DNA from: Oligoflexales bacterium
GTDB lineage: Bacteria; Bdellovibrionota_B; Oligoflexia; Oligoflexales; RGVZ01
Direction of reading: 5' to 3'
DNA: 56,845 nt
NCBI GenBank assembly: GCA_044236265.1
Contig: JBIIGV010000004.1
Location: forward strand, 1 to 56,845
Shown here: one piece after another, positions 5,925 to 25,115 of the stretch
Layout: each line of letters begins with the position of its first letter
Numbering within the stretch: the first letter of the stretch is position 1
Program-made: the position numbers and the translations under genes
Notes under the pieces: generated by a model
What the model saw: the letters and a program-made list of their open reading frames with translations, nothing else
Database searches by the model: none
What the model was told of the DNA's origin: nothing

Positions 5925-6125
5925 TAAAAGCCTCCCCCATCGCAGTTCAATAGACCCTAAAACCATGATGCATGGGGCAGGCCAAATGAGCAAAACACTC
6001 AACATTTCAGCCGTTTATCATAATTATTAGAATTAAATATTTCTTTTAAAATCAAATAAAATCATTGACTCAAACAGCGTAAAATAATAGAACCATTCAT
6101 GATTTGGGACCTTTGGAGGTGCTTT

Positions 6126-6917
6126 GTGTCTACCCGCAAACAGCAAACTCATAGCCTGCTCAACGCTGCAGCAGCCATCCTGATCGCTCTCTCGACATTC
6201 TCTAGCTGCGGAGCACCGCAGCCAAGCAAATTGGACATTATTGGCGGCACCCCGGTTGAAGAGCAAGACCCTCTTGCAAAGCACGTTGCAGCAATTGTTA
6301 CAGCGAATCATACGGTTCACTGTTCAGCTGTTGCTATCGACACGTCAACCTTCCTGACAGCCGCACACTGTATCTACGGCAGAAATTTGCAAGGATGGAA
6401 AATTAAAAGTGGCCTTAAGGCCGGAGATGAAGAGTCGCTTGACGTCATCTCAGGAGATGCCCATCCCAAATATGATCCGTCCATGATGCGAACACTGACG
6501 CCAGATCTTCCTCCTTATGATTTAGCGGTGATTAAGACGGCAGAAGCTGCGCGCTCGATCATTCCAGTCCCCATTATTCGTAAACAACTGAATCTTTTCG
6601 CTCAATCAGAGCTAAACGTTACAGTCGCTGGTTACGGGCGTACCGACGGACAAGACCCAATGTCGACTGGCAGGCTGCAAAAAGCATCATTAAATATCAG
6701 CGGTTTCAATAAAGTTGCGCGAGAATTCACAACCCGCGACGACGACGGAAAAATGGGCTGTCATGTCGACTCTGGAGCTCCGGCATTCATGAATATTGGC
6801 AAACGTCTGACTCTTGTGGGGCTTGTGTCCCGTGGCGACCGCAAATGCTCGTCAGGCACAACCGTGTTTACCGATATTTCAGAACAGTCAGACTATGTGG
6901 CGATTATTCCCGATTAA
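6126..6917 (+). CDS. Trypsin-like (S1) serine protease lipoprotein
   Basis: SD GGAGG before GTG 6126, lipobox FSSC, IIGG, LTAAHC, DLAVI and CHVDSGAP. Confidence 0.85.
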   Translation: MSTRKQQTHSLLNAAAAILIALSTFSSCGAPQPSKLDIIGGTPVEEQDPLAKHVAAIVTANHTVHCSAVAIDTSTFLTAAHCIYGRNLQGWKIKSGLKAGDEESLDVISGDAHPKYDPSMMRTLTPDLPPYDLAVIKTAEAARSIIPVPIIRKQLNLFAQSELNVTVAGYGRTDGQDPMSTGRLQKASLNISGFNKVAREFTTRDDDGKMGCHVDSGAPAFMNIGKRLTLVGLVSRGDRKCSSGTTVFTDISEQSDYVAIIPD

Positions 6918-6996
6918 ATAAGTCTAGACTCGATTTAATCTTGGGTGCATAGGTTCTTCAACACACAACCCTTTGCCGGGTTCTGAAGGAGATACT

Positions 6997-8133
6997 ATGG
7001 CGACCTTGAAACAATCCTACTTTGTACTTTTTATCTTGTTCACAGTCTCGACCGGATGCGGCAATCGAGCGCAAATCTCCAAACTACGCGAGCAGTGGAA
7101 TCCAGCCAATGATCCACTCAGGATGTTACCTGATAACTTTGAAAGATCATTTTCCGAACTCGCGACAGACGCCCAATCGTCAAAAAATCCATGGTCTGAC
7201 AGTTACTGGCCCACGTCTGCCGGGGGCCTGGCTTATCGGTGGAATGACACTGATTCATCGATGAATGAAGCATTTATATATCAACCGTACTCACTAAACC
7301 AGCTGCGCCGCATGAGCTCTGCAGATTTGTCAAAACTATCTCCTGCAGAAAAATTTGATATCTTGAACGCGGCGTATCATTATCCCCTTCTGAATGCAGA
7401 GCGTCGTCGGACGAATCCTGACGCACCGGGTTGGGAAGGTTTGTGTCACGGTTGGGCATCGGCAGCACTAAATTTTAAAGAGCCGAAATCACTTATCGTC
7501 AAGAATCCAGATGGAATCGCAATTCCCTTCGGCGCTGCAGATGTTAAGGCCTTGTTAGCCCTTTACGTTGGAAACTACGGCAATGCACGAACGTACTTTG
7601 TCGCAGAACGCTGCGAGTATAATTTCGCTGAAAATCCCAGGGCAAAGCGGCGACCCGAGTGTCGCGATGCCAATGCCGGGATGTTCCACCTGGTTCTTGC
7701 CAACAAAATTGGGATTGATAAAAAGGGGTTTGTAGCGGATCTCAATCGGGAACAGCAGGTTTGGAATCAGCCCATCGTTTCATTTACCTCGGAAAGACTC
7801 TCCGAACGGGATGGGGCCAGTCGTGGCGCTGCACCTGGCACGGTCAAGGAAGTCACGCTGAAGACCGTGATCGGCTATGCCGTAGAAACCATGCCGGAAT
7901 GGGATGCAGGCATTGTCAACGAATCAAAACGAGAATATAAGTATCAGCTTGAACTTGATGCCGGCGGTGACGTCATAGGCGGTGCTTGGCTAGAAGAAAC
8001 GAGGCCAGACTTTTTATGGGTCCAGGAAAGGACAGCTTTCTATGATTTTGGGTCCATTAAGTTCAGTAGTCTCGAGAAGCTATATCGGGAGTCCACAAAC
8101 TCTAATGGAATCGCAAACCCCGTAAATCAATAA
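6997..8133 (+). CDS. Transglutaminase-elicitor (GP42-like) family lipoprotein
   Basis: SD AAGGAG, lipobox STGC, PWSDSYWP, LSPAEKFD, WEGLCHGWASAA (catalytic Cys motif), QVWNQP and PDFLW. Confidence 0.75.
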   Translation: MATLKQSYFVLFILFTVSTGCGNRAQISKLREQWNPANDPLRMLPDNFERSFSELATDAQSSKNPWSDSYWPTSAGGLAYRWNDTDSSMNEAFIYQPYSLNQLRRMSSADLSKLSPAEKFDILNAAYHYPLLNAERRRTNPDAPGWEGLCHGWASAALNFKEPKSLIVKNPDGIAIPFGAADVKALLALYVGNYGNARTYFVAERCEYNFAENPRAKRRPECRDANAGMFHLVLANKIGIDKKGFVADLNREQQVWNQPIVSFTSERLSERDGASRGAAPGTVKEVTLKTVIGYAVETMPEWDAGIVNESKREYKYQLELDAGGDVIGGAWLEETRPDFLWVQERTAFYDFGSIKFSSLEKLYRESTNSNGIANPVNQ

Positions 8134-10425: not shown

Positions 10426-10479
10426 CCCTAAACAGCGATGTTATTGGGCGAAGCATACGATCATTGCGAGGAGATAAAC

Positions 10480-10830
10480 TTGGGTAGACTCACCACTCAT
10501 GTTCTGGATACGGCATCGGGAAAGCCTGCAAAACAAATGGCTCTCTCGCTATACACAATCGAGGGGAACCAGCGTCACCTAATCAAGGAAACAACGACTA
10601 ACGACGACGGCCGATGCTCACAGCCTCTTTTGGAAGGTTCAGACTTTAAAACCGGCACCTACGAGCTCGTATTTCAAGTCAGCGCCTACTTCTCAAAGTC
10701 GTCGGAAACCTCGAACCCTCCATTTTTGGGTGAAGTACCGATCAGATTTTCAATCGCCGATGCGTCGGCTCATTATCATGTGCCGCTTTTGGTCTCCCCT
10801 TGGTCCTACTCCACCTACCGCGGAAGCTGA
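10480..10830 (+). CDS. uraH: 5-hydroxyisourate hydrolase (transthyretin-like)
   Basis: [39 protein letters not shown] signature; TTG start after SD GAGGAG. Confidence 0.95.
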
Positions 10831-10836
10831 GGCAAG

Positions 10837-12021
10837 ATGACAGGCTACATCATAGACTGGTTACAAATACTTCTTCGTTTTTTTCACGTCATAACCGGGA
10901 TTGCGTGGATCGGTGCATCGTTTTACTTTGTCTGGCTCGACAACCACCTGCGAAAGCCAGAATCACCAGAATTGAAAGCCAAGGGCGTGGACGGCGAATT
11001 GTGGGCTGTCCATGGGGGTGGATTTTACAATCCCCAGAAATATCTCGTAGCGCCGAATGAACTACCAGCTGACTTACATTGGTTTTACTGGGAGTCCTAC
11101 TCCACCTGGTTAACTGGTATCGCACTATTTGTGGTCTCATATCTTGTGAATGCCAAAACAATGCTGATCGACATGCGCGTCATGGCATTATCTGAGCCTA
11201 CAGCCATTGCACTCGCTATCAGTTTCCTTGTCATTGGTTGGGTTATCTACGACTTAGTTTGTCGATGGTTTCAAAACAGGGACACGATTGTAGGCTGTAT
11301 CGTAGCGGTGATGATGATTGTCATCTCGTATTCCACTTGCCAAATCTTTTCTGCAAGAGCCGCATTTCTCCTGACCGGAGCCGTGATGGCGACAGCCATG
11401 ACCGCCAACGTGTTTTTTTGGATTATTCCGGGTCAACGCGCGGTGATCAAATCCATGCAAGCAGGTGAGCCTGTAGACCCTAAACATGGTCAGCGAGGTA
11501 AACAGCGTAGCGTTCACAATACTTACTTCACACTTCCCGTTCTTTTCGCGATGCTGTCCAATCACTTTCACATGCTTTATAGCCACCAATATCAATGGGT
11601 CCTGCTGGTTTTGATGATGCTCGCCTCAGCTTTAATCCGGCACTATTTTGTATTGCGCCACAAGGGTCTAAACTCCCTCGGTACGCTAGCGTTTGCGGGT
11701 GGGCTAATTGCGGTCGTTATGGTTTGGGCTGCCCCCTCTGCGCCGGTGGTCGCCGAAAATACGCCAACTGCCGCGAGCCTTGCTGAGGTTACAAGCATCA
11801 TTAATCAGAGGTGTGTGCCCTGTCATAGCGACCAACCAACACTCATGCCCATTACGCCCAAAAATCTTAACCTTAGGGCTCCGGGCGCCATAGAAGCAAA
11901 TGCAAGTGCCATTTACCTCCAGGTTGTGCAGCAAAAAATTATGCCCGTAGGCAATATTACTGAGATGACTGACGAGGAACGGGGCAAGATCGCATCATGG
12001 TTTGAGACACTACAAAATTGA
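10837..12021 (+). CDS. puuD: Membrane urate hydroxylase with C-terminal cytochrome c
   Basis: HVITGIAWIGASFYFVWLD, WAVHGGGFY, WESYSTW, NVFFWIIPGQ, RSVHNTYFTLPVLFAMLSNH and C-terminal CVPCH; 6 nt after uraH. Confidence 0.93.
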   Translation: MTGYIIDWLQILLRFFHVITGIAWIGASFYFVWLDNHLRKPESPELKAKGVDGELWAVHGGGFYNPQKYLVAPNELPADLHWFYWESYSTWLTGIALFVVSYLVNAKTMLIDMRVMALSEPTAIALAISFLVIGWVIYDLVCRWFQNRDTIVGCIVAVMMIVISYSTCQIFSARAAFLLTGAVMATAMTANVFFWIIPGQRAVIKSMQAGEPVDPKHGQRGKQRSVHNTYFTLPVLFAMLSNHFHMLYSHQYQWVLLVLMMLASALIRHYFVLRHKGLNSLGTLAFAGGLIAVVMVWAAPSAPVVAENTPTAASLAEVTSIINQRCVPCHSDQPTLMPITPKNLNLRAPGAIEANASAIYLQVVQQKIMPVGNITEMTDEERGKIASWFETLQN

Positions 12022-12030
12022 TCCAGCCCA

Positions 12031-12864
12031 TTAGCCTCGTCGCTCTAGCTCCCCAATGACGAGCAACAGGTCCCCGGGTGTCTGCTGAATCTTCAAAAGT
12101 TTTTTATACTCGATTGCAAGCTTCGCGCGGATACTGCGATCAAGCATCGTACCGATTGGGAAGATTATTTGCTCCTCCTTCCAGTCGGTCTCTTGTGCGA
12201 GAAATTTGTCAAGCAACCGGGGTTCTTCAACTCCTGCAAATGGATCATACCCAGAGTCACTCAGGATTTTTACACTCAAACGATCAGCCTCTTTTTCCTG
12301 CTCCCATCGGGCGCGATTGACTGCTTCATCCCTAAACGGCAGCGTCAGAGATCTTGTCTGCTCGTTACTTTCGTCATGAGACCTTGTGTAGCGAATGATT
12401 TCGCGAGCAAGAAGCGACGCCACATGATCCTCTGTTTTTAATCCGCGAATGACTTGTGGATAGAACCATACGATGCCAAATTTGGTTTCAGGAAGCTTGA
12501 CTGCATTATCTGAACAAACGACACGAAGTGTAAGCGCAGGACTCTGCCGAGTGGCTTTTTGCAATGACGCACCGTCAATCAGCCTGTTGAAGATCCGTTG
12601 TAAAAGATTAGATGTTTTTGGACAATCGCCTCCAGACTCCTTGGATAACAGATCTTGCTGCTGCCGATAATTTTCAATTACTTTTTCACGAACATCGCTG
12701 GGAAAGATTGACTTAGGTACGACAAGCTCACTGGCAACAACGCTAGTTTCATCGGAAGTTTCATCGCGAAGATGGGAGGATGCTGCATGCTTTCCCGGGA
12801 CTTTACAGCTCACCAAACTCCCTAGAACCACAATCGTTATCACTGCATGACAAGCTATCTGCAT
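12031..12864 (-). CDS. M48 peptidase-like lipoprotein with degenerate zinc motif
   Basis: Lipobox LVSC, EDHVASLLAREIIR at the HExxH position, and EKEADR....SGYDP. Confidence 0.65.
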   Translation of the reverse strand: MQIACHAVITIVVLGSLVSCKVPGKHAASSHLRDETSDETSVVASELVVPKSIFPSDVREKVIENYRQQQDLLSKESGGDCPKTSNLLQRIFNRLIDGASLQKATRQSPALTLRVVCSDNAVKLPETKFGIVWFYPQVIRGLKTEDHVASLLAREIIRYTRSHDESNEQTRSLTLPFRDEAVNRARWEQEKEADRLSVKILSDSGYDPFAGVEEPRLLDKFLAQETDWKEEQIIFPIGTMLDRSIRAKLAIEYKKLLKIQQTPGDLLLVIGELERRG

Positions 12865-13134: not shown

Positions 13135-14847
13135 ATGATTCGCTCGTCTAACAAGAGATTTATATGCATCGTTGCTAGCTTAGTTACAGCTACGACACTC
13201 GTCTCTTGCGCCAATCGTGACAACGCCGATGAAACACCGCAGCAAACAGCTGCCCCGAGTATTTCAGAAATTGCGCCAATTCCATTTGCAACCTGGAATG
13301 GCGAGGGCATCGAAACAATAAATCCCATCTCGATGAAGGCTACACCAGATGCCGATACGATGATGAGTTTGTCGGCCTGCGAGTGCGCTCCAGGATTGAA
13401 TTCAAAGTTTTTTGCAATAAGCGCTTTAACGAGAGGCGTTCTCCCCCAGGTACTTGTTCCAACTGTTCGTCAAAAAATTGCAACCAATAGCACTCTTGAG
13501 TTATTACGTCGTTTGCCACCCGGTCTCGCCAGCCTGATGACGGGACTATTTGCTGATGACGATGCTATTTACACTCAAGTGCGAGATGGACTTCAGGCCA
13601 TGCTTGCCAAGTCGCTGGCAAGCACAGGCGGCACAAGCCTCCATCTTCGCATGCCTTACAGATTTGATCTATTTACATCTTCGGTGATTTCGCCGGCTGG
13701 TTACCCAGTGGCATTTGATGTGAAAAACCAGGCCGCACGTTGGAACCTGGTTATGGCCACAAACGCAATGTGGAAGAATGCCATTCCCGTTGATGGTGTC
13801 GATCATGGCCTGCAGTTACTGGAGACAACCCGGGTGGTTGCAGAGTGGGCTTACATGGCCGGAATTGGCAGTGACGGGGCCCCAGATGGATACGGTGGTC
13901 TTGCTGCGAGTATCGAGCAGCCAGCAGGAAATATGGCACAACCTGAAAATCCTGAAACGACATCTGACACATGGGGTATCTATACATCTGGAAGGTATAG
14001 CGTCGGATACCCAAATGCTTCCTCTCTCGACCTGGCAACCCGCGTAAAAGAGATGTGGACCGTTGAAGTAGACGGAGTCAGTCTTGAGGAGCAGGCGACC
14101 GCGTCGCGTGCAGCCGCTCTTGCCTTTGCAAAAATGCGCGCAGATCGCTTGGGCGAAGCCGAGAGATTATTCTCAAATCCAGACGGAGCGCTTTCGCCTA
14201 GTATGGCAAAACTACCTCTCGTCTGGCTACCCGCCATGGCGACCATGCTGAGTCAAAAGTATCTGGACAAGGAAACTTTGACCATCCAGGAATATGCTTT
14301 CCCAAAGGAAGGCCAACAACGCAAAGCGAGCCTACGCTCACTCCTTAGAGCTGCCCAAGCCCTCCAGGAATGGCGCCTGGCTACGACTGAAATCGAAGGA
14401 GCTAATCTGTCCGAGTCACTAAACAAACGCCTGGCTCCTTTAAACCAAGATCTCATCATGCCGCTACAGTTGATAACCCGCACCATACTGAATCGTTTCA
14501 CTGCAATAAATACGACTAACGGTGAAATCTGGGTCATGCCGACAAAGGATGACGGCACGGTGGAAACTGACCCAATGATCATCGCAGAACTTATCTCAAC
14601 ACTTGCAACCCTGGATCAGGCGCTATTTATCTCCCCAGAGTTGAAAGCTCGAGTGACATCAATGTATCACTGGTACGTAAAGTACGTGCTGATGCCCAAG
14701 ATGACCGGCTTTGATTATTTAACGGCACCTCAGGTCTTATGGAACGTGAAGGCCGCAGATGTCATGGGCAACTATCAAAACGCAGCACCATGGATTTCCT
14801 CACTTGAAACGCGCCTAAGATCGGTTGCCGTGGGGATACAGCTATGA
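13135..14847 (+). CDS. Large hypothetical lipoprotein
   Basis: Lipobox LVSC; 570 aa; no family recognised; ATGA overlap with the next gene. Confidence 0.7.
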   Translation: MIRSSNKRFICIVASLVTATTLVSCANRDNADETPQQTAAPSISEIAPIPFATWNGEGIETINPISMKATPDADTMMSLSACECAPGLNSKFFAISALTRGVLPQVLVPTVRQKIATNSTLELLRRLPPGLASLMTGLFADDDAIYTQVRDGLQAMLAKSLASTGGTSLHLRMPYRFDLFTSSVISPAGYPVAFDVKNQAARWNLVMATNAMWKNAIPVDGVDHGLQLLETTRVVAEWAYMAGIGSDGAPDGYGGLAASIEQPAGNMAQPENPETTSDTWGIYTSGRYSVGYPNASSLDLATRVKEMWTVEVDGVSLEEQATASRAAALAFAKMRADRLGEAERLFSNPDGALSPSMAKLPLVWLPAMATMLSQKYLDKETLTIQEYAFPKEGQQRKASLRSLLRAAQALQEWRLATTEIEGANLSESLNKRLAPLNQDLIMPLQLITRTILNRFTAINTTNGEIWVMPTKDDGTVETDPMIIAELISTLATLDQALFISPELKARVTSMYHWYVKYVLMPKMTGFDYLTAPQVLWNVKAADVMGNYQNAAPWISSLETRLRSVAVGIQL

Positions 14848-16220
14848 AAACATCTTATCGATTTACAAAATGTATCCTGCTGATGTCCGCATTTTCCTGG
14901 GCATCCATGAGCTTCTCGCAAATTCTTCCAGAGGGCACAGGTGCTGTTGCATTTGGGCAAAGACAATATAGCCCAACAAGCACCCAATATGATCAAGGCG
15001 GTCAGCTTCGCTCTCTTGGAAATCGTATTGACATGGACTTTGATTCACGACAAATGGCTTCTGGCGCCCTTGGTGAAGACCTTAAGCGTCTTTACGACGA
15101 AACGAAACTATATGACTCTGCAAATACCGGCAAAGCAAGCCTTGCGGATCAATTAAATTTTGGAAATCTACGCGGGGACATTCAAGCAAAAATTAATGCT
15201 AATTATCTTGGCGCTGCCTACGGACTCCGTAAAAATCTGACGATTTTCACCGGGCTTCCGTTCATTCGCTCGACCGTTACTGCGAATTTGACCATGGAGG
15301 GACAAAATACCGCCAATGCCGTCAAGGCAAGACTTGGGAACTTGGCCTTTAAAGATATTCAGGACGGATTAGATACGGCTAGCGGCATCAACATCTGGAC
15401 AGTGAAGAAAAAAATCAGTGAAGACTACGGCTACATTCCAGCAGACAAATGGGAATATGCCGGAATCGGAGACTTCCTTCTAGGAGCCCGTTCAAGCATG
15501 TACGATGCCGAGGGCTTTGGTGGAAAATATAACTTACAACTAAGCGGCCAGGTTGAGTTCCCGACCGGTCACGCAGATAACCCGGATATACTAACAGACG
15601 CAGCTTTAGGAAAGGGCTATGTAGCCCCCATGGTAAGCGCACAGCAGACCGCATCCTACGGCTATTTAGAAGTAGGTCTGGATACAGGTCTTGGTATTGG
15701 TATCCCAACCCAGACCACACGTCGTGTACCAGTGGATAACGAAGCACTGATCACCTTAGATAGGAAAACAAAAGTAAATTGGATACCAGGCCCGGAAACA
15801 AAAGTAGTCAGCTCTTTAAGCTTTGGTCCGTCTTTGGTCAAGGGTTCGTACCGCCTGGGCGTCAACCAACACTTCCGCGATCGCTATTCAGGAAAACTTC
15901 GTGGAAACTACAGCACTCTCGAGAAAGACTCCGAAACTCAGGAACAGTTCCATCAGTTTGGGATTACTATCAATACGGTAGATGCATATCTGTCTAACAA
16001 ATTTGCTCTACCAATGATCGCAAGCTTAACAGCTCATGAAAGCCTCGGTGGACGAAACACCGTCCGATCCCGCTATATTGAACTTTCTATTGCGACATTC
16101 TTTAAGGGACATACTCCCCGGGCGGAACTAGCCGACGAAAGTCCACGAGTTGAGCCTCAAATGACAAAAACCGTTTCCCAAACCGACGCGATCCCCGCTA
16201 TAACTGAAGACGGTGAGTAA
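14844..16220 (+). CDS. Secreted protein, probable outer-membrane beta-barrel
   Basis: Signal peptide, amphipathic strands (YLGAAYGL, GIGDFLLGAR, VEFPTG, YIELSIATFF) and a low-complexity C-terminal tail. Confidence 0.6.
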   Translation: MKTSYRFTKCILLMSAFSWASMSFSQILPEGTGAVAFGQRQYSPTSTQYDQGGQLRSLGNRIDMDFDSRQMASGALGEDLKRLYDETKLYDSANTGKASLADQLNFGNLRGDIQAKINANYLGAAYGLRKNLTIFTGLPFIRSTVTANLTMEGQNTANAVKARLGNLAFKDIQDGLDTASGINIWTVKKKISEDYGYIPADKWEYAGIGDFLLGARSSMYDAEGFGGKYNLQLSGQVEFPTGHADNPDILTDAALGKGYVAPMVSAQQTASYGYLEVGLDTGLGIGIPTQTTRRVPVDNEALITLDRKTKVNWIPGPETKVVSSLSFGPSLVKGSYRLGVNQHFRDRYSGKLRGNYSTLEKDSETQEQFHQFGITINTVDAYLSNKFALPMIASLTAHESLGGRNTVRSRYIELSIATFFKGHTPRAELADESPRVEPQMTKTVSQTDAIPAITEDGE

Positions 16221-16261: not shown

Positions 16262-17770
16262 ATGGAAAACGGTCATCAACCTAGAACAAATAAATCTATC
16301 ACCGAGAGTCATCATGAGGACTTGGGATTCCGCTTTGAGCATAGTTACTCAGAGCTACCGAGCCTGTTCTTTTCAAAGGCTGAGACGGAACTATTCCCAG
16401 CACCACGCCTGACAATCTTCAATGAAGCTTTGGCAAAAGATTTAAATCTAGATTTTTCTCAGCTGTCTCCAGATGAGATCGCCAAGATATTTACCGGCCA
16501 GAGTTTACCTGTCGGAGCCAAACCCCTTGCCCAGGCTTACGCCGGACATCAGTACGGCGGCTTTACGATATTAGGGGACGGACGTGCGCTACTACTCGGC
16601 GAGCATCGAACAAAAAATGGAGAACTCTTTGACATCCAATTCAAAGGCTCTGGGATAACTCCGTATTCGAGACGTGGTGATGGTCGAGCAGCTTTGGGTC
16701 CGATGCTTCGCGAATATATTATCAGTGAAGCCATGTGGCATTTGAATATACCGACCACAAGGAGTTTAGCGGTCGCGACGACAGGTGAGAACGTTTATCG
16801 TGAAAGACCTCTACCCGGAGCCGTTCTAACCAGAGTCGCCTCAAGTCATATTCGCGTGGGTACGTTTCAATTTGCCGCATATAGACGAGACCATCTTGCA
16901 TTGCAAAAATTAGCAGACTATACGATTTCAAGGCACTACCCCGAAATTTCAAATCATGAAGATAAATACTTAGAGCTATTTCGGCAGGTGTCAGAGCGTC
17001 AAGCTGTCTTGATCGCTAAATGGCTTGGAGTAGGATTCATCCACGGTGTTATGAATACCGATAATATGTCAATTGCCGGAGAAACGATCGATTACGGTCC
17101 ATGCGCTTTCATGAACCATTACCATCCAGATACTGTATTTAGTTCAATAGACCATTATGGTCGGTACTGTTTCGCCAATCAGACTGCAATCGCCCAATGG
17201 AATCTTGTTCGTTTTGCAGAAGCACTGTTGCCACTTATCGATAAGCAGCAGGAGAAAGCTGTAGATATTATGACCGCAGAGGTCAATCGTCTTCCCGGGA
17301 TCTTCGAAAAACGGCGACTCGACTTGATGCGAAGCAAGCTTGGACTCAAGTCATCAAAAACTACAGATGAAGATCTTATTAATGATCTTCTAAAAGTCAT
17401 GGAGACCTCTAAACTAGACTACACAAACACTTGGCGCGACCTGCCAACAACTCGGATAGACACCAATCCAAGCTACCAAGTTGCCGAGTTCAAACAATGG
17501 TATCAGCGATGGATCCAGCGCTTGTCACAGGATGGCGAGACTCTTGACTCTGCACGCCTTCGAATGAATCAGGCCAATCCCTATATCATTCCTCGCAACC
17601 ACCGGGTAGAAGAGGCCCTTCTGGCCGCAGACGTCAACGATGACTTGCGTCCCCTAAGGCGCTTAGTCACGGCACTCTCAGAGCCCACTAACGAAAATCA
17701 AGATTTTAACGATTTGAGAGAGCCTCCACCAGACGACCAAGCCTGCTACAAAACATTTTGTGGGACTTAG
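16262..17770 (+). CDS. selO: Protein adenylyltransferase SelO (YdiU)
   Basis: AQAYAGHQYG, LGDGRA, KGSGITPYSRRGDGRA, GFIHGVMNTDNMSI, IDYGP, IPRNH and C-terminal TFCGT. Confidence 0.95.
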   Translation: MENGHQPRTNKSITESHHEDLGFRFEHSYSELPSLFFSKAETELFPAPRLTIFNEALAKDLNLDFSQLSPDEIAKIFTGQSLPVGAKPLAQAYAGHQYGGFTILGDGRALLLGEHRTKNGELFDIQFKGSGITPYSRRGDGRAALGPMLREYIISEAMWHLNIPTTRSLAVATTGENVYRERPLPGAVLTRVASSHIRVGTFQFAAYRRDHLALQKLADYTISRHYPEISNHEDKYLELFRQVSERQAVLIAKWLGVGFIHGVMNTDNMSIAGETIDYGPCAFMNHYHPDTVFSSIDHYGRYCFANQTAIAQWNLVRFAEALLPLIDKQQEKAVDIMTAEVNRLPGIFEKRRLDLMRSKLGLKSSKTTDEDLINDLLKVMETSKLDYTNTWRDLPTTRIDTNPSYQVAEFKQWYQRWIQRLSQDGETLDSARLRMNQANPYIIPRNHRVEEALLAADVNDDLRPLRRLVTALSEPTNENQDFNDLREPPPDDQACYKTFCGT

Positions 17771-17798
17771 AAGACGAAAATTATTTTATATTCCGAAC

Positions 17799-20700
17799 TT
17801 AGTCCTTGGCGAATACCTGAATGCGATTAATGCCACCATCCGGATAAGTACGAATTTTCAATTCACCCGTTTTCATGGGCGTCGACACGCGAATTTCCTT
17901 GCGATCACCAGCAAACGCTTTTGCAGGAAGTTTGCCTGCTATATCAACCCATTCAGATCCACGTTTGGCAAAAACCTGAACATATAGGGGGTTATTGTTC
18001 ACAAAGTATTTGAAATCCAGAATGATTCGACCAACATCGATATCTCCGGACAGAGCTAATACGACCTCATCAAAGTGGTCAGGCGTGCGACTTCTAGATG
18101 ACTCCATGCCGTCAAACATATTAAGCGGTGGAAACGGTGAAATGACATTTTTCGCTGGGCTGTAATGTTCGTTCGTAGCACTAATAATCCGTGCTCCCAG
18201 AGCCGCAGAAGCAAAGTCAAAAGGACCACGCTTCGCTCGCCTCACGTTCAACTGAATCTCAGCGTCGGACGGATCGTAATCTAGCGTCATGGGCTTTATG
18301 CCCTTAGGCACAGGCTCACTATAACGCTGACAGAATGACTTCGCCAAAGGCACAAAATCCTTAGCTAGATCATTTGGCAGGGAACTATAAAGACCCACTC
18401 TGGTTAAGCCGCCATCCGGGTGCATCTCGATCCTAACCTGCGATATACGACTCGTCTCAGCAGGAAGCTTGATAAGTCTAAACCCATGACCATCCATAGG
18501 TGTCTTCGGCAGTAACTCTGACCAGGCACCCTCTTCTCCATCACGACCGAGAATTCGTACAGCCTGCGCCTGATTACCGTCATGGTACTTAGTCGACAGT
18601 TTCACAAACGATACCGTACCGGGCACCCTCAAATCGAGATCCAACATATCAAAAGGCAGAGGATTGTGTCGCGTTGACTCCCAACTATCCATAATCTTAC
18701 CCTGCCGTCCATAGAGGGCTGGATCGTATTCAGGCTCTCCGGGATTAAAAACGTTTTCGGCGCGAGCAAAAATATGATTCGTGACCCGACGAACGCTAGC
18801 ATCGGTCAATAAATTATATTTTGCCAGCGGATCGATCCGACCACTTCGCTGAATCACCTCGGGCAACATCGGCTTGAAGGCGTCAAATATCAGTTTTTTG
18901 TAACCCAGATTGACGATCTGCTCCTGACCCAACTTGGAATAATCAAATCCAGCCGCAAAGCGGGCGAAATCAATTCCAGATACATCGAGTCGCTTCAGCA
19001 ATAGCTGCGTCACCTCAGATATGTAAAGCACGCCGGAATTGTCGGCATTACAAAGCACGACAAAGCCTTTTCCGGAGTCTGGTCCTGCAAAGCAGTGAAC
19101 GTAAATCGCCCTAAAGCCTTCATTGGCACCTTGGTGCACCGCCAAGCGATTATCCCCGGCCTCTGCAACAAAAACACCAAGTCCCATGTCACAGCCCATA
19201 AAGTCTCGACAACCCAAGTCGCGCCCATGAAGCATGAGGCGTGCCGTGTCATGGGAGATGGGCCCAGATCCTTCCAAATTAACGTATGCACGTCCTAGAT
19301 GACGCAAGAATCCAAGCATGGCTTCAGCAGAACCCATAGCGCCCGCTGCAAAAGCGGGAAACAGAAGTCTTCCACCTGGTACAACTTTACCATCATCAAA
19401 ATAACCGTCCGCATAGGAACGACCCAGAATGTCGTGCTGCTCGAACGTCAATTCATTGGGCGAAATTTTTCCAAGGAAGTCTTTTGTGAGATCTTTAATT
19501 TTCTTTCCTGACATCACTTCCATTAAATGTTCAAGAACAAGAAAACCGGCACCTGAATACTTAAATACGGAGCCAGGCTCCGAAATAATATCAACCGGTT
19601 CGTAACCGTAGCCAGGTCCATCAATCAAAATATCGCCACTAGACGGCACTTCGCCAGTCTTGGGAAAGCCTTTAACGTAGTGCATGTTCAAGGCACTATG
19701 GCTCATGAGATGCTGAACGGAAACCGCGTCGGCCCAAGAACTATCACCCTTCAGACTTTTCAATCGAAATTTTGATTTCGCTTCCGCAAAAAGCTTGTTT
19801 ACAGACGCATCGCTGCGAATTCCCCGTTCTGCAAAAAACTCCATGGCAAAGGCTGACGCCAGGGTTTTACTCAAAGACGCCAATTCAAACAACGTGTGTT
19901 CATTGACAGGGCTCTGACCGCGAACAGCGTCTCCCCAGCAAATTGGTTGAATATCTCGACCGTCGGTGACTGCAACTTGTGACCCAGTGACTTTATATTT
20001 CTTGGCGATTTCTGATAAATCCGAAAAAACCGAATCAACCGGTGATTCATTCATTCGCTTTAAAGCAATGCTCCACAACGCGTCCTGAGCATTTTTAATT
20101 TCCGTCTCTTTGCTGTTTAGAATTCGTGTTTTGAGTGCGTCCAGCAAATCTTTACCAGAACGACCCTGAGCAAAAACTAGAAATTTAAACCCAAACTTGT
20201 CGCGGTATTTAAGGCCTATGTCACGAAGCTGCCCAAGAATTTCGTCACTACTTTCACTGGCTTTCTGTTGCTCAACTCGCGCACGACCATCGAGCGTCTT
20301 GGGCGACTCACCGATGTCTCCGTGAAAACTAGCTGCCTCAACAATGTCGCTGACTGAAAAATTGTTAACGACCGACTCGCCAAATGATCGGTCAAGAAAT
20401 GGTTTTGCCGCCATTTGCGACGCAAAGGATTCTGAACCACAGCACTCGAAATAGTAATTCCAACGTTCGATGTAAGAGTCCAACTTATATTTCAAAGGAT
20501 CAAGCTGTTGCACCTTGGCCCAAGGATTCAGGTCATTTCGAATCTCCGGCACAGTAAATGGAAGTAAAAGCTCAGAGGCAAATTCGACGGGAGTCTTGGC
20601 CGCCATCAGCTGGACCATCAATTTGAAAGCCACCGGATACCATTTTTCCGTGCGTTCATCCCATTTAACTTGAACAATCTTTTTTTCATCCGAGAGATCT

Positions 20701-22532
20701 TTGCGGATGAATCGCATTTCTTCCTGGGCAATACGGAGGAAATCCTCCAACTTAAATCGACCGTGATAAATCTCATGCCACACTTCCCAGCGAGAGCGCT
20801 CGGCTGTCGCAAGGTCATCCATAACTCTAACCGGTATTCCATCAATAATAGTCGGCAATGCCACACAACCATTTCCAGAAAGCCAATCAGTTATATATTG
20901 CAAAGATTGAAAAACGTTGTAGCGAATCTCATCTGGATGGTTGTTTGGGACGTAGTCGGACTCCTTGATGTCAGCCACCAGAAGTGAGCGCACGTAGTTC
21001 GGATCCTTTGGATCAAGACCTTTGATGTCTTCTCCACGAATAAAGGCGTCAACCTCTTTGCGATAACTTTCAGAAAATATTTCTTTTGTTAACTTGAAGA
21101 GTGGCGCGTGATCGCCTTTTTCGTAACGGCGCCAAGCCTCGATGATCGCAAGGCCCAAGCGAACAAAGTCCGGGTGTGCCACCCAGTACCCTGTCAAATC
21201 TCGCTTTAGCTGCGTGATGACATCCTTGAAAAAACCTTTCAAGGCGACCTGAAACGACGGGCTTGTGATGTCAGTTGATTGCGGAAGGATGCCGTACATC
21301 CCACCAACTTTAACTCCACCACGCGAACCCACCACATCAGCCAGCAAAGAGTGCGAAGCCTTGATGTACTTGATGACAATATTAGGATCGGCCTTGACCG
21401 GAATACGGTAATTCGAATCTTCCTTAAATAAACGCGCCGTCGACGCCAAATAGTCGTGCCAGCCTAACGATGCACCAACAAAATAAGGATGCAGCGCGTC
21501 CATGATTTCATGCGTGCGCAGGATGGCCCGCGGATTTTCCAAAACAATCATCAAACGAATCGTACCAAGCTTGTACTCGGGATGACGCGCCTTGATCATC
21601 TCTTCGGCAGTAGCAATCATCGTATGGATGTAGCGGGCCTCTTCCTCATTTTCAAGCTTGGGAACATAAAACGAAAGTGACTTCGGATTGTGCCAGTTTT
21701 TGAATAAATGCAGAGCGAAGTCGTACAAATGCAGAGGAATCGGGCTATCTTTGTAGAATAAAAATGTGCATGGAAGTGCCAACCCAGGAAAACGCTTCAT
21801 GGGTGCCGATAAATGCGTACTAGCAAGCTCGTAATTCTTATTTCCCTCTTTTAGAGTCAGGGTCCCATCAAAACAGCCAGTGAGATTGACGCCAGCGTCA
21901 ATTAAATCCTGCCTCAACGGCGTTTTAGAATCCTCATCATCTGCACCCCATTTAGGCGCAGCGTTCTGCGTCGCAAGCAACTCCTCAATAATTGCAGGCT
22001 CGCCCTTCAGCTTACGATGATAGGCATTCATTGCGTTGATGGCCATTTTCGCGGAGTCTGGGGGACCGAACAGAGTTACATGCGGTCCCTGCAAATAGTC
22101 GGGAATTGGAGCAACCGGATTGCCACCAGACGTGCAGTATGAATCTGATTTCGGACCGACAACAATACGGCCATCCGCATCCTCCAATCCGATGACTGTT
22201 TTGTAATCAGGATCTAGAAAATCTCGGTGCAGTTTTTCGTTGAATTCAAAACATGCACGAGCACGCTCGTCGATAAATTTGCGGTCTAAAATTCTCTGCG
22301 CCAGAACCTTAGCGAGTTTCGGCTTCACTCGCTGGTAGAGTGTGACAAGAAACGACAAAGACTCAGCAGTCTCAAGCCCACCCGTCGCTCCGATATGCCG
22401 AAGACCATCGACGCCTGGCATCGTTGCCGCCTGCGACAACAAATGCCGAGCCAAGGTCGGCGAAATAAAGTCGTGGTAGTAAGGAATCTCAAAAAAAGGT
22501 TCCACATTGCGCTGATTATTTTGTGTTTTCAT
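17799..22532 (-). CDS. Four-domain fusion: malate synthase + OHCU decarboxylase + beta-lactamase-family serine hydrolase + allantoicase
   Basis: Uninterrupted 1577-aa ORF. Malate synthase (aa ~40-665): ADDEDS, KR247FPG, YVPKLE, VLE332N, GWHD360Y, WVAHP, GNGCV, MDD573LATAERSR. UraD (~690-828): H737GDIG, E754Q, YRDKFGFKFLV, IALKRM. Serine hydrolase (~832-1183): FELAS886LSK, LMSHS, FKY992SG, H1133QG. Allantoicase (~1238-1577): two repeats, each ending in PDGG. Confidence 0.88.
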   Translation of the reverse strand: MKTQNNQRNVEPFFEIPYYHDFISPTLARHLLSQAATMPGVDGLRHIGATGGLETAESLSFLVTLYQRVKPKLAKVLAQRILDRKFIDERARACFEFNEKLHRDFLDPDYKTVIGLEDADGRIVVGPKSDSYCTSGGNPVAPIPDYLQGPHVTLFGPPDSAKMAINAMNAYHRKLKGEPAIIEELLATQNAAPKWGADDEDSKTPLRQDLIDAGVNLTGCFDGTLTLKEGNKNYELASTHLSAPMKRFPGLALPCTFLFYKDSPIPLHLYDFALHLFKNWHNPKSLSFYVPKLENEEEARYIHTMIATAEEMIKARHPEYKLGTIRLMIVLENPRAILRTHEIMDALHPYFVGASLGWHDYLASTARLFKEDSNYRIPVKADPNIVIKYIKASHSLLADVVGSRGGVKVGGMYGILPQSTDITSPSFQVALKGFFKDVITQLKRDLTGYWVAHPDFVRLGLAIIEAWRRYEKGDHAPLFKLTKEIFSESYRKEVDAFIRGEDIKGLDPKDPNYVRSLLVADIKESDYVPNNHPDEIRYNVFQSLQYITDWLSGNGCVALPTIIDGIPVRVMDDLATAERSRWEVWHEIYHGRFKLEDFLRIAQEEMRFIRKDLSDEKKIVQVKWDERTEKWYPVAFKLMVQLMAAKTPVEFASELLLPFTVPEIRNDLNPWAKVQQLDPLKYKLDSYIERWNYYFECCGSESFASQMAAKPFLDRSFGESVVNNFSVSDIVEAASFHGDIGESPKTLDGRARVEQQKASESSDEILGQLRDIGLKYRDKFGFKFLVFAQGRSGKDLLDALKTRILNSKETEIKNAQDALWSIALKRMNESPVDSVFSDLSEIAKKYKVTGSQVAVTDGRDIQPICWGDAVRGQSPVNEHTLFELASLSKTLASAFAMEFFAERGIRSDASVNKLFAEAKSKFRLKSLKGDSSWADAVSVQHLMSHSALNMHYVKGFPKTGEVPSSGDILIDGPGYGYEPVDIISEPGSVFKYSGAGFLVLEHLMEVMSGKKIKDLTKDFLGKISPNELTFEQHDILGRSYADGYFDDGKVVPGGRLLFPAFAAGAMGSAEAMLGFLRHLGRAYVNLEGSGPISHDTARLMLHGRDLGCRDFMGCDMGLGVFVAEAGDNRLAVHQGANEGFRAIYVHCFAGPDSGKGFVVLCNADNSGVLYISEVTQLLLKRLDVSGIDFARFAAGFDYSKLGQEQIVNLGYKKLIFDAFKPMLPEVIQRSGRIDPLAKYNLLTDASVRRVTNHIFARAENVFNPGEPEYDPALYGRQGKIMDSWESTRHNPLPFDMLDLDLRVPGTVSFVKLSTKYHDGNQAQAVRILGRDGEEGAWSELLPKTPMDGHGFRLIKLPAETSRISQVRIEMHPDGGLTRVGLYSSLPNDLAKDFVPLAKSFCQRYSEPVPKGIKPMTLDYDPSDAEIQLNVRRAKRGPFDFASAALGARIISATNEHYSPAKNVISPFPPLNMFDGMESSRSRTPDHFDEVVLALSGDIDVGRIILDFKYFVNNNPLYVQVFAKRGSEWVDIAGKLPAKAFAGDRKEIRVSTPMKTGELKIRTYPDGGINRIQVFAKD

Positions 22533-22574
22533 GAGGATAAGCCTAGCCGCCCGTGGCCCTTATGGCAACCATGA

Positions 22575-24413
22575 TTATTGGTCATTAGCCATGCGCAGGG
22601 CGGTTTCTATGGCAATTTTGGCAACCTGGGCTGAGAACTCGAGGTCAATATTGGCGGCGACATCGGTCGACTGGTGGTAGTTCGGATTGTTGCTCTCTGG
22701 TTGGGAGTAGTCCATATCCTCATTAAACAGAATGCCTGGATATCCTCGAAACTCGAATTCGAGCAAATCCGTCTGAAAGACACTGTTACGCAGACGATTC
22801 CGCGGTTGATAAACGGCTTCAATACGCCCACCAGCAAGATCTTTGGCGGCGTCAAGAGCCATAGCAGCAAATCTTTCTGACCCCGGAACGGCTGTTGGAC
22901 TGATCTGGAACCGCAGAGAATCGGGCTGATGCGAACCTATAAAATCGGTGATGATAACACCATAAATATCCTTTTTATCGCGCATCATTTCAGACAGGAA
23001 ATGGCGCGCGCCCAGATCGACAGCGGGAAATTCTTCGCCAGTCAGATGAACTAACCAAATTGGGCGTTTTGGTTTGACTCCGCGCAATACCTTAGCACTC
23101 TGTAATAATAGTGATGTGGCCGTACTGTTATCATTTGCCCCAGGCGTTGTGACACGTTGACCGGTGCTTTCAAACACGTCTTCAGCAATTGCTGAATCGA
23201 TATGATCAGCTAACACAATTGGTGGCAAAGTTGGGTCTTGCCCTTCAATGATAGCTATCAAATTTGACTGCGGAAGGCCTCGCCATTGAAAACGCTGCCG
23301 AGTCGTTGGAATTGACAACTCTTTGTAGCGCAACTCCAGATAATCTACCATGCGCTCGAGATCATGACCGACCTGATGGGATCCCTTCTTCCTGAAAGGC
23401 TTCAACGCTGAGCCATTTGGGAGTCGCGGTTCAAGCTCTCCATCGGCAATCTTGATGTCACGTTCATAGTCTTTTGTAAACGAAGCGGGCCAAGAGCGAA
23501 CAAGAACTGGCGATTGTATGGGATCGGGGAGTTCATTGGGAGCTTTAAGCCAATTGACAGACTCAGACCATTGCAAGCGGCTCTGATTGACCTTAAAAGA
23601 GAAAACCAAGTAGCGATCATTAAAGAAAGCGGGCGGATTTACACAGTAGGCATCATAGGCTCCACGTTTTGTTAATTCAGACCGCCATTTTGCTCGATCC
23701 ACCGAGTACGGATCAGACCACGCTTTTACTACCTTTTGAGTTTTGCGATCTACAAAGACGCAGTTTCCATATAGGGGCTGGTCATAAAGACCTGGACGCT
23801 CCAAAAAATCTGCAAATATTTCTATTTCATCATCAGCATGTGACGGGTGAAGCAAATAAGCAAACAACGGATCGCCACCCACCGCCGCTGCACCGCGTCC
23901 GTGATCATGCTTACTGCGATAGCGACGTGCATCTTCTGTTGTGAACCACCGCCATACGGCGTCTTTTCCACGCCAACGAGCGAACACCCATTCAAATTGA
24001 CCGTTCTCATCAAGGCTCGGCCAAGCCTGCACCTCAAAGGAAGCTTCTCCTGTCATCTTGGCGAGTAAACTTATCCGCGACTCGACCTTTGCTTTCAGAT
24101 CAGCGGGCAAACGAGGGATTGGTCGTGCGGAAGCGCCTAAGACGATCTCTCTGGACGATAAACCCACAAACAGAGGGAAATATCGCTCAGAAGAGTTTGG
24201 CGTGTTGAGCCATGGCTTTGACGGCAGTTCTCGAATCAAATCAGAATATTCTGCGGCGTCTGCGAATAGGTCACCTGCGCTCGCAGAAACCGCGCTCTGA
24301 TTCGCTGTCGCACGACAACTGAATAAACAAAATACAACTATACTTAGGACAAACGAATGTCGAAGACTCGAGCACGCGGATGTCGTCGATCCGCCATGAT
24401 CATGCGCGAACAT
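22575..24413 (-). CDS. M28 family metallopeptidase, probable lipoprotein
   Basis: LFSC lipobox-like motif, NLIAII, ADHIDS, PGANDNST, TGEEFP and NYHQSTD. Start uncertain. Confidence 0.8.
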   Translation of the reverse strand: MFAHDHGGSTTSACSSLRHSFVLSIVVFCLFSCRATANQSAVSASAGDLFADAAEYSDLIRELPSKPWLNTPNSSERYFPLFVGLSSREIVLGASARPIPRLPADLKAKVESRISLLAKMTGEASFEVQAWPSLDENGQFEWVFARWRGKDAVWRWFTTEDARRYRSKHDHGRGAAAVGGDPLFAYLLHPSHADDEIEIFADFLERPGLYDQPLYGNCVFVDRKTQKVVKAWSDPYSVDRAKWRSELTKRGAYDAYCVNPPAFFNDRYLVFSFKVNQSRLQWSESVNWLKAPNELPDPIQSPVLVRSWPASFTKDYERDIKIADGELEPRLPNGSALKPFRKKGSHQVGHDLERMVDYLELRYKELSIPTTRQRFQWRGLPQSNLIAIIEGQDPTLPPIVLADHIDSAIAEDVFESTGQRVTTPGANDNSTATSLLLQSAKVLRGVKPKRPIWLVHLTGEEFPAVDLGARHFLSEMMRDKKDIYGVIITDFIGSHQPDSLRFQISPTAVPGSERFAAMALDAAKDLAGGRIEAVYQPRNRLRNSVFQTDLLEFEFRGYPGILFNEDMDYSQPESNNPNYHQSTDVAANIDLEFSAQVAKIAIETALRMANDQ

Positions 24414-24419
24414 CTGCTG

Positions 24420-25115
24420 TCACTCCATCTTCATGATCAATTCGTGCTTATACCAGGGCTGACCTTTGGTTATGGTCATCCCGAAATTATAAACTTTCTG
24501 GTTCCCATCAACATCGTGCCAACGGTCCAAAAACTCGTACGTTGGTATGAATGTGTAGTGCCCAAAAGTACTAGGATCCATGAAATAGATGTTTTTTTCG
24601 TCATAGCCAATTGCCACCGAGAAGTGTCCATCCTCCCAATCTGACGGGTAATCGTGGCCAGGAACCTCCAAGTCTGCCCAGGCCTGCAGCAGCACCAAGA
24701 CCGGCACGCCCTGATCAATGGAAGACTTAAGACCCTCTAGTGTCCAATTGTAGTGGGCCTTGACCTCAAAACCTTCAGCTTCGGAGAACCGCACAATGTC
24801 TCTAACCAGCGTCCCATCGACATCGTTGGAACGAAGCTCTTTGGCAAGATCCGCCTCGAGATAAACCTTAGATTGATCGTAATAATAAAGAATAGAAGCT
24901 AGAGCGGACGGTCCACAAGTGTAGTTCATTCCCTGACGAGTTAGGGGTACACGAATTAGATTTTTTGGCTGAGATTGCATTGGATCACTTTCGGAAACGC
25001 GTTGGGTCAGCGATCGCCCTGCCTTCAGCAGGAGCGTCTGACCGATGGCTCCCGAAGCTGCGACGAACAACAATGTCTTTACGAGAATCGAAATCTTTCG
25101 CACAGCGACCTTCAT
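24420..25115 (-). CDS. Stand-alone C39-like cysteine peptidase, probably exported
   Basis: QGMNYTCGPSALASIL, GHFSVAIGYD and YFMDP; hydrophobic N-terminus. Confidence 0.8.
   Translation of the reverse strand: MKVAVRKISILVKTLLFVAASGAIGQTLLLKAGRSLTQRVSESDPMQSQPKNLIRVPLTRQGMNYTCGPSALASILYYYDQSKVYLEADLAKELRSNDVDGTLVRDIVRFSEAEGFEVKAHYNWTLEGLKSSIDQGVPVLVLLQAWADLEVPGHDYPSDWEDGHFSVAIGYDEKNIYFMDPSTFGHYTFIPTYEFLDRWHDVDGNQKVYNFGMTITKGQPWYKHELIMKME

Follow-up and report, generated by a model that had tools for sequence, protein, structure and literature searches.

A four-domain fusion protein of urate catabolism in an Oligoflexales bacterium and its relatives, with a candidate beta-lactamase-fold allantoinase and a malate synthase-like module

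Urate catabolism is a textbook pathway in which genomic reasoning has more than once turned up a missing enzyme, as with PuuE, PuuD and the vertebrate ureidoglycolate lyase (UGL). The question raised here is how many of its steps a single polypeptide might carry, and with which enzymes. The window (the whole stretch of DNA that was analysed, 56,845 nucleotides of contig JBIIGV010000004.1 from the Oligoflexales bacterium assembly GCA_044236265.1) contains a gene (17799..22532, (-)) whose product joins a malate synthase (MS)-like domain, a decarboxylase of 2-oxo-4-hydroxy-4-carboxy-5-ureidoimidazoline (OHCU), UraD, a beta-lactamase-fold (BL) domain and an allantoicase. That this fusion serves urate catabolism we regard as nearly certain. 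The whole of our best explanation, a four-step urate-catabolic fusion with two non-canonical modules, has in our judgement an even chance of being right.

The gene starts with ATG and runs for 1577 codons, without internal stops, to a stop codon at 17799-17801. From the N-terminus it encodes the MS-like domain (residues 1-690; 20463..22532, (-)), the UraD domain (residues 691-830; 20043..20462, (-)), the BL domain, an S12-type serine hydrolase (residues 831-1236; 18825..20042, (-)), a short linker (residues 1237-1244) and the allantoicase, composed of two jelly-roll repeats (residues 1245-1577; 17802..18800, (-)). Every domain exceeds its Pfam gathering cut-off: MS_TIM-barrel, PF01274, at residues 250-461 (71.1 bits, cut-off 26.4), MS_C, PF20659, at 534-651 (42.2, cut-off 23.1), OHCU_decarbox, PF09349, at 719-827 (69.5, cut-off 24), Beta-lactamase, PF00144, at 841-1166 (78.3, cut-off 27) and Allantoicase, PF03561, in two stretches, the best of them at 1245-1383 (123.5). 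The single stop-free open reading frame (ORF) with four domains in this order, proposed in an earlier sequence-only reading of the window, is thus borne out by the ORF listing, the translation and Pfam alike. The stricter NCBIfam equivalog cut-offs are missed by all four domains, indicating that each is divergent: the scores are 142.6 against 277.9 bits for allantoicase (TIGR02961), 136.8 against 594.5 for malate_syn_A (TIGR01344), 68.2 against 139.4 for UraD_2 (TIGR03180) and, for the BL domain, 26.3 against 415 for class C beta-lactamase, a score on which we set aside its identity as a class C beta-lactamase proper.

A long ORF of this kind could be an artefact of assembly or gene calling, or a decaying pseudogene of four adjacent genes. 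The source assembly, in 234 contigs and 88.7% complete, leaves room for this, as does a frame that is broken in 4 of 80 related loci. However, one frame is kept in 57 independent assemblies, and a 38,399-base contig from an independent study's run (X4) covers 17700-22650 whole, differing by 48 substitutions and not a single gap. In two further studies (X2 and X3), contigs bridge each domain junction, with no joints, indels or loose ends reported, so that stops or misassembly at the junctions, the outcome that would have undone the sequence-only reading, were not found. Across 58 aligned sequences the inter-domain linkers are near-constant in length and nearly all checked catalytic motif residues are fixed in all 58, the exceptions lying in the second allantoicase repeat. 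Recurrence in 57 of the 80 loci, junction-spanning contigs and conservation of motifs and linkers together rule out a misassembly or pseudogene, to which we assign a negligible chance.

The fusion is widespread. A length-matched protein search (E ≤ 1e-3 among 8000 scored candidates) returned 634 proteins; the best 120 of these are 1504-1657 amino acids (aa) long, share 55-78% identity (the window's own protein excluded) and carry the same Pfam domains. Among these 120, some are named "serine hydrolase" at source (Bdellovibrio sp. HCB337, Bacteriovorax, Oligoflexus and metagenome-assembled genomes of Bdellovibrionota), and the Joint Genome Institute uses the composite name "allantoicase/malate synthase/CubicO group peptidase" for the family. 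A search of 185,579 genomes, each representing one prokaryotic species, showed that 429 encode a relative. The best 80 loci were kept: in 57 all four domains lie in one frame up to a stop, in the order seen in the window, and 19 reach a contig end with the expected domains present that far. The fusion frame is interrupted in the remaining four (L049, L064, L079 and L086). The record titles of the closest relatives name Bdellovibrio, Bacteriovorax or Oligoflexales. With G000 counted, 12 of the 13 members of the window's genus carry the fusion, some of them as copies divided by contig ends; G014 is the one further carrier in the set of 40 relatives of the source genome that was compared. The most conserved domain is the MS-like one, with a median identity of 67%. 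In the literature searched (Creative Commons-licensed articles in PubMed Central, and bioRxiv) no publication describing the four-domain fusion was found, in line with the earlier statement that no fusion of this architecture was known; the family is abundant in sequence databases though its architecture is undescribed in that literature.

The genomic context ties the fusion to urate. As had been noted from the sequence, uraH and puuD lie near it in the window, at 6-7 kb: uraH (10438..10830, (+)) encodes a 5-hydroxyisourate hydrolase (TIGR02962, 140 bits, cut-off 87.45), and the adjoining puuD (10837..12021, (+)) a PuuD-type membrane urate oxidase (Urate_ox_N, 431.9 bits) with a CVPCH haem motif, the CxxCH being at residue 326. 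In the 57 complete loci, UraH and PuuD each occur near the fusion in 45 and are its only widely conserved neighbours; in 42, uraH precedes the fusion on its strand by less than 200 bp. Xanthine dehydrogenase genes are found near fewer (XdhC 13, XdhB 10 and XdhA 10 of 57). These counts indicate that the usual unit in most lineages is puuD-uraH-fusion, sometimes adjoining xanthine dehydrogenase; in the window's genus this unit is split apart.

Two of the four modules are recognizable uricolytic enzymes. In the UraD domain, which matches the structures 2Q37, 5UOU and 3O7H in the Protein Data Bank, the putative catalytic residues H737, E754, Q755 and R826 are invariant in 58 of 58 sequences. Yeast allantoicase (1SG3/1O59) aligns to the fusion over both repeats. 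The allantoicase motifs that we followed were chosen from the 1SG3 alignment and not from a published active site; in repeat 1 (D-x-W-E-x-x-R and PDGG-x-x-R) they are invariant in the 58 sequences, and in repeat 2 L, M, F or I takes the place of the tryptophan, and 20 of 58 have a cysteine for the aspartate of PDGG. Fusion of consecutive or nearby uricolytic steps is familiar from two-domain allantoicase-UraD proteins (NCBIfam NF010371), relative to which the window's protein has the reverse domain order, a BL domain inserted between the two and an MS-like domain added. Other UraD fusions are UraH-UraD, the plant allantoin synthase, and UraD-uricase, PucL of Bacillus subtilis.

Between UraD and allantoicase the pathway requires an allantoinase, and it is there that the BL domain is found. 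Its motifs S886-L-S-K889, Y992-S-G and H1133-Q-G are fixed in every sequence of two sets, one of 30 and one of 58, and additional polar residues are likewise invariant. An AlphaFold (AF2) model of the domain has a predicted local distance difference test score (pLDDT) of 92.5. Foldseek matched it to esterase IS11, R61 DD-peptidase, SurE, LACTB, D-amino-acid amidase and class C beta-lactamases, with probability 1.00 to many members, template modelling (TM) scores of 0.6-0.7 and identities of 16-24%. The domain thus has the fold and the Ser-x-x-Lys, Tyr and His-x-Gly motifs of S12/class C beta-lactamases, DD-peptidases and family VIII esterases; it differs from them in being 16-24% identical to any solved member and in sitting inside a purine-catabolic polypeptide. 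On the model and motifs it appears to be an active S12-type serine amidase or esterase, an assignment at family level only, and nothing suggests a role in antibiotic resistance.

Comparison with unfused operons points to a more specific role. Standalone MS-like proteins were used as seeds to scan metagenomes, and this recovered urate operons of the order puuD / ~450-aa gene / allantoicase(-UraD) / uraH / MS-like, in which the allantoicase may be of the two-domain kind (in L153, allantoicase scored 432 bits and UraD_2 162 bits). The ~450-aa gene was canonical AllB in all five operons tested (494-517 bits, cut-off 357.85). Among 84 loci with an allantoicase, 69 have BL without AllB, 12 have an adjacent AllB without BL and three have neither, the allantoicase being at a contig edge in at least two of these three; none has both. 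The 40 relatives follow the same pattern: AllB exceeds its cut-off in G017, G025 and G033, in each adjoining an unfused allantoicase, and in G026, and it does so in none of the 13 fusion carriers among them or of five further fusion genomes (18 tested). No PuuE over its cut-off was found in the 40 relatives or in the five further fusion genomes, two of which are complete. G019 has a 319-bit AllB fragment at a contig end. Three other amidohydrolases were considered as allantoinases and rejected: G000:C183 is a PyrC-type dihydroorotase (305 against 279 bits), the 280-bit AllB-like match of G040 is a dihydroorotase (702 against 482) and the 252-bit match of G044 is a dihydropyrimidinase (585 against 393) that adjoins a PreA gene.

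We read the BL domain as a serine-hydrolase allantoinase because AllB versus BL is the sole component that differs between the unfused and the fused operons, and because its place between UraD and allantoicase follows the pathway order. On this comparative evidence of displacement the BL domain is probably the allantoinase replacement. The earlier label of a beta-lactamase-family serine hydrolase therefore holds for the fold, by Pfam and motifs, and gives way for the generic role, since genomics points to replacement of an allantoinase. The domain matches neither AllB (TIGR03178) nor PuuE (TIGR03212), so that it would work like an allantoinase without belonging to either family. AllB is an amidohydrolase and PuuE a polysaccharide-deacetylase-type enzyme; the BL domain is proposed to catalyse the same reaction, allantoin to allantoate, is non-homologous to both and would use a serine acyl-enzyme in place of metal-activated water. 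PuuE itself is a precedent, as a non-homologous allantoinase that genomic reasoning brought to light.

Two considerations weigh on the other side: the case is made by displacement logic only, and the nearest structures (16-24% identity) are those of esterases, DD-peptidases and D-amino-acid amidases, none of which acts on ureides. A beta-lactamase-fold allantoinase has no biochemical precedent, and no paper proposing one was found in the literature searched. The domain could instead be another amidase (acting, for example, on ureidoglycolate or on an allantoin-related side product), an unrelated peptidase or esterase, or a structural or regulatory module, with the allantoin ring being opened by an unrecognized enzyme or non-enzymatically; standalone BL relatives in eukaryotes would be in keeping with this. 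We consider such a role rather unlikely in view of the strict exclusivity of BL and AllB over the 84 loci and 40 relatives, the lack of any AllB or PuuE over cut-off in the 18 fusion genomes, and the position and invariant residues described above. The standalone relatives (P0446, P0416, P0418, P0451 and P0454) are ~370-480 aa long and 37-47% identical, with source names from microbial eukaryotes (Sphaeroforma arctica, EukProt transcripts and Effrenium voratum). Two further proteins, P0411 (MMETSP; BL and allantoicase) and P0440 (TARA; UraD and BL), were set aside as independent fusions; they may be fragments or contaminants because their ends coincide with the interior of the four-domain protein.

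The second non-canonical module is the MS-like domain, which aligns to E. coli malate synthase A (MSA; 3CUZ) and whose key residues in the window's protein are R247, E332, W358-H359-D360 (nt 21453-21461) and D573. A sample of 25 fused and 30 standalone members was used to tally residues, numbered here as in E. coli MSA. In these 55, R166, E250, D278, D447, W365 and C438 are invariant; the first four make up the catalytic set of malate synthase. R276 and W277 are replaced by tryptophan and histidine, again without exception, giving a W-H-D signature. D447 is the catalytic base of malate synthase according to PMC3112382, from which we also took the six positions on which our comparison of the acetyl-CoA site rests (I94, T95, G96, M102, M330 and P369). 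Within these limits, G96, M330 and P369 are identical in the 55 members, M102 is M or L (C in one), and I94 and T95 are changed to L and F; positions 102, 369 and 438 vary in sister W-H-D lineages.

An exhaustive profile search with the MS-like domain gave 1345 matches at E ≤ 1e-3 and 142 at E ≤ 1e-30, and the signature was read in the 62 matches of at least 470 aa among the 150 listed. W-H-D is common to the fusion family and to a tier of intermediate matches, R-W-D is present in 23 of 23 canonical MSA-type matches, and the I276/M365 signature of zebrafish UGL occurs in none of the 62. Two W-H-D proteins, P0299 (1038 aa) and P0315 (1027 aa), join the MS-like domain directly to allantoicase, the UraD and BL parts being absent; the canonical MS P0341, on the other hand, is fused to isocitrate lyase (ICL). 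Standalone W-H-D proteins of ~680 aa occur in Desulfobulbales, Myxococcota and Bradymonadaceae, and 24 of 77 standalone MS-like metagenome loci adjoin urate genes, often directly after uraH. By sequence, the W-H-D clade is a separate branch of the MS superfamily, one that partners allantoicase, UraD and uraH and not isocitrate lyase.

What would such a domain do after allantoicase? Malate synthases A and G share with it a TIM barrel, a C-terminal cap and R166, E250, D278 and D447; from malate synthase A it differs in having W-H-D in place of R-W-D, in being ~150 aa longer by insertions, in its NCBIfam score (137 against 594.5 bits) and in the absence of a dedicated AllA/DAL3 lyase from its genomes. 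According to PMC10120013, the zebrafish MS-like protein (DrMSL) is a stereospecific, metal-independent ureidoglycolate lyase without MS activity; that study accepts MS genes in purine clusters as true ones only if a dedicated AllA/DAL3 lyase accompanies them. As in the fusion, the MS fold of DrMSL is tied to allantoicase and urate oxidase and not to the glyoxylate cycle; the glyoxylate/metal site is kept in both, R276 is substituted in both and both occur in the absence of an AllA/DAL3-type lyase (PMC10120013). The two differ, on the same account, in that the MS-like domain has W and not I at 276, H in place of W277, W365 kept and not changed to M, and mostly conserved CoA contacts, conservation of the CoA site being reported lost in zebrafish UGL (PMC10120013).

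AllA ureidoglycolate lyase (PF04115) was not found in the 40 relatives, in the five further fusion genomes (two of them complete) or among 20 other ORFs scanned in five unfused operons. Three of ten fusion genomes (G041-G043) also carry a canonical aceB next to ICL. The absence of AllA, the aceB-ICL pair of these three genomes and the W-H-D-allantoicase fusions favour reading the MS-like domain as a ureidoglycolate lyase.

Several findings pull away from the lyase. The Claisen-condensation residues R166, E250, D278 and D447 are all invariant; the acetyl-CoA contacts are largely kept and the W365M change is absent, unlike what is reported for zebrafish UGL; and the loss of R276 does not exclude a malate synthase, because E. 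coli malate synthase G (MSG) has F-L-D at 276-278, so that positions 276 and 277 are not essential for that activity. In seven of the ten fusion genomes (the window's genus, G040 and G044) no MS-family sequence other than the MS-like domain occurs and a canonical ICL is lacking, and urease was not found in the five fusion genomes tested, so that malate would be the only evident gain, which favours a synthase. DUF6986, a second family discussed below, accompanies the fusion in G014 and in all 12 carriers of the window's genus and could be the lyase, leaving the MS-like domain as the synthase. AllA and MS-like matches are both missing from G017 and G033, so that lack of a canonical lyase is common in this order. 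Lastly, 53 of the 77 standalone MS-like loci have no urate gene on the recovered piece, several of them with ~10 kb on each side.

These points lend themselves to an alternative in which the N-terminal module works as a dedicated malate synthase, comparable to DAL7 of yeast, and clears toxic glyoxylate as malate; cleavage of ureidoglycolate would be spontaneous or fall to the allantoicase module or, in genomes that have it, to DUF6986, and the BL domain may still be the allantoinase. The status of the MS-like domain as the most conserved of the four is in keeping with it, as is a malate:quinone oxidoreductase gene near one unfused locus, and precedents for an MS gene inside an allantoin-degradation cluster are provided by yeast DAL7 and Paraglaciecola glcB in the zebrafish study (PMC10120013). 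Yet five fusion genomes, two of them complete, lack both AllA and DUF6986, W-H-D occurs in none of the 23 canonical MSA-type outgroups, W-H-D proteins fuse to allantoicase where a canonical MS fuses to ICL, aceB-aceA is already present in three genomes, and the MSA score falls far below its cut-off. We give the dedicated synthase a tentative place only. Going by sequence, then, lyase only and malate synthase only are almost equally likely for the MS-like domain, each well short of an even chance and the lyase slightly ahead; that it is both is less likely, and that it is neither still less. The earlier proposal that the polypeptide leads all the way to malate consequently stands for the MS fold and its catalytic residues; the identity as malate synthase becomes one possibility among several in view of the W-H-D clade, the lack of AllA and the zebrafish lyase precedent.

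Two observations on standalone W-H-D loci belong here. The malate:quinone oxidoreductase (Mqo, 761 bits) is encoded at L097:10370-12001 (-), ~1 kb past uraH and ~6.7 kb from the MS-like gene, at the far end of a single unfused urate cluster; it hints at malate as a product. L094, L096, L117, L139, L159 and L160 are among the standalone loci with no urate-catabolic gene within ~10 kb, and the W-H-D clade may have a second, non-purine context.

A second family occupies the same position in other genomes. In G033 and G017 the operon reads puuD-allB-alc-uraD-uraH-DUF6986, followed in G033 by a class-V aminotransferase gene and xdhABC. DUF6986 (PF22484) lies directly after uraH in both (G033:C1:215573-216823, L176:6544-7887, (-); and G017:C2:18111-19400, L177:6088-7470, (-)). 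These proteins of ~450 aa contain, in MS order, counterparts of all the MS motifs, namely IDFEDG, an invariant Arg, TLPK, IE.P, G.YDYTAS, WDLHP and FDDAATG. A structure model (pLDDT 80) matched E. coli MSA first and then CitE-like lyases, malyl-CoA lyases, CLYBL, malate synthase H (MSH) and MSG, with TM scores of 0.35-0.47, that is, at superfamily level. An hhalign comparison of DUF6986 with the MS-like profile gave a probability of 2% only, and we accept homology to MS on the motif order and the predicted fold, not on hhalign.

DUF6986 is present in 21 of the 40 relatives, comprising all 17 with an allantoicase, fused or unfused, together with G011, G013, G020 and G032; it was found in none of the five further fusion genomes and in none of 161 collected loci, and no paper in the literature searched mentions it. 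In G014 a puuD-uraH-DUF6986 cluster lies ~30 kb from the fusion. The copy in G000 (C13:6156-7349, L190:6150-7457, (-)) is a divergent subtype, 42% identical to that of G033, without purine context. The slot after uraH is therefore taken by two different MS-superfamily families, W-H-D or DUF6986. We rejected DUF6986 as a strict either/or alternative to the MS-like gene, as both are present in G014 and in the window's genus; where they co-occur, the lyase and synthase roles may be split between them. Where a genome has no AllA and no DUF6986, nothing but the W-H-D domain is left as a candidate for the ureidoglycolate step; DUF6986 is itself a candidate ureidoglycolate lyase or glyoxylate-handling enzyme.

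Taken as a pathway, we infer the following course, in which the BL and MS-like activities, the end product and any channelling of intermediates are all predicted. PuuD would convert urate to 5-hydroxyisourate and UraH this product to OHCU, after which the cytoplasmic four-module enzyme would take over. The UraD module would decarboxylate OHCU to (S)-allantoin, and the BL module would open the hydantoin ring of allantoin, through an acyl-enzyme involving Ser886, Lys889 and Tyr992, to yield allantoate, replacing the metal-dependent AllB. Allantoicase would release urea and (S)-ureidoglycolate, and the W-H-D MS-like module, as a ureidoglycolate lyase, would eliminate the second urea to leave glyoxylate. 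The same site might then perform a next step, glyoxylate and acetyl-CoA giving malate. The steps named in the sequence-only scheme are retained here, and the allantoinase and ureidoglycolate lyase steps, which it had left without an enzyme, now have candidates. Its rationale, that such an enzyme would suit a predator digesting prey nucleic acids, may apply; standalone MS-like forms occur in Desulfobulbales and Myxococcota, beyond the relatives of Bdellovibrio, Bacteriovorax or Oligoflexales type. In the most far-reaching version, OHCU would be carried to malate on one polypeptide by a serine-nucleophile BL allantoinase and a bifunctional W-H-D domain that removes urea from (S)-ureidoglycolate and condenses the still-bound glyoxylate with acetyl-CoA, freeing none, and DUF6986 would be a third, independent MS-superfamily solution for this step in related operons. 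We hold this version to be improbable.

Other features of the window are as follows. The fusion gene is flanked by SelO (16262-17770, (+)) and by an M28 peptidase gene (22575-24413, (-)). The latter and a C39-like peptidase gene (together 22575-25115, (-)) lie directly upstream of the fusion on the same strand, with a 42-bp gap. Genes for a trypsin-like protease and a transglutaminase-elicitor-like protein are at 6099-8133 (+). Between puuD and the fusion, three ORFs of 277, 570 and 458 aa (12031-12864, (-); 13135-14847, (+); and 14844-16220, (+)) gave no Pfam or NCBIfam match. The PuuD of the window has 394 aa with a C-terminal CVPCH, and the PuuD adjoining most other fusions has ~540 aa; in the one example of the latter that was checked (L042, 8036-9664) CxxCH is absent and the protein ends in a weak, sub-cut-off CarboxypepD_reg-like Pfam match. 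This suggests two PuuD subtypes.

The fusion and its unfused counterparts yield three concrete candidates, the BL allantoinase, the W-H-D clade and DUF6986. A BL allantoinase, if true, would add a third class, non-homologous to AllB and PuuE; it would widen the chemistry of the S12/class C fold and caution against "serine hydrolase" or "beta-lactamase" as annotations. The W-H-D clade is currently annotated "malate synthase" or "aldolase/citrate lyase", and its activity decides whether carbon is gained from purines as malate. DUF6986, a domain of unknown function, gains a pathway context. As a four-step fusion, the protein is a natural system for the study of substrate channelling of labile ureides, and it bears on how bacteria of the Bdellovibrionota type dispose of purines without urease.

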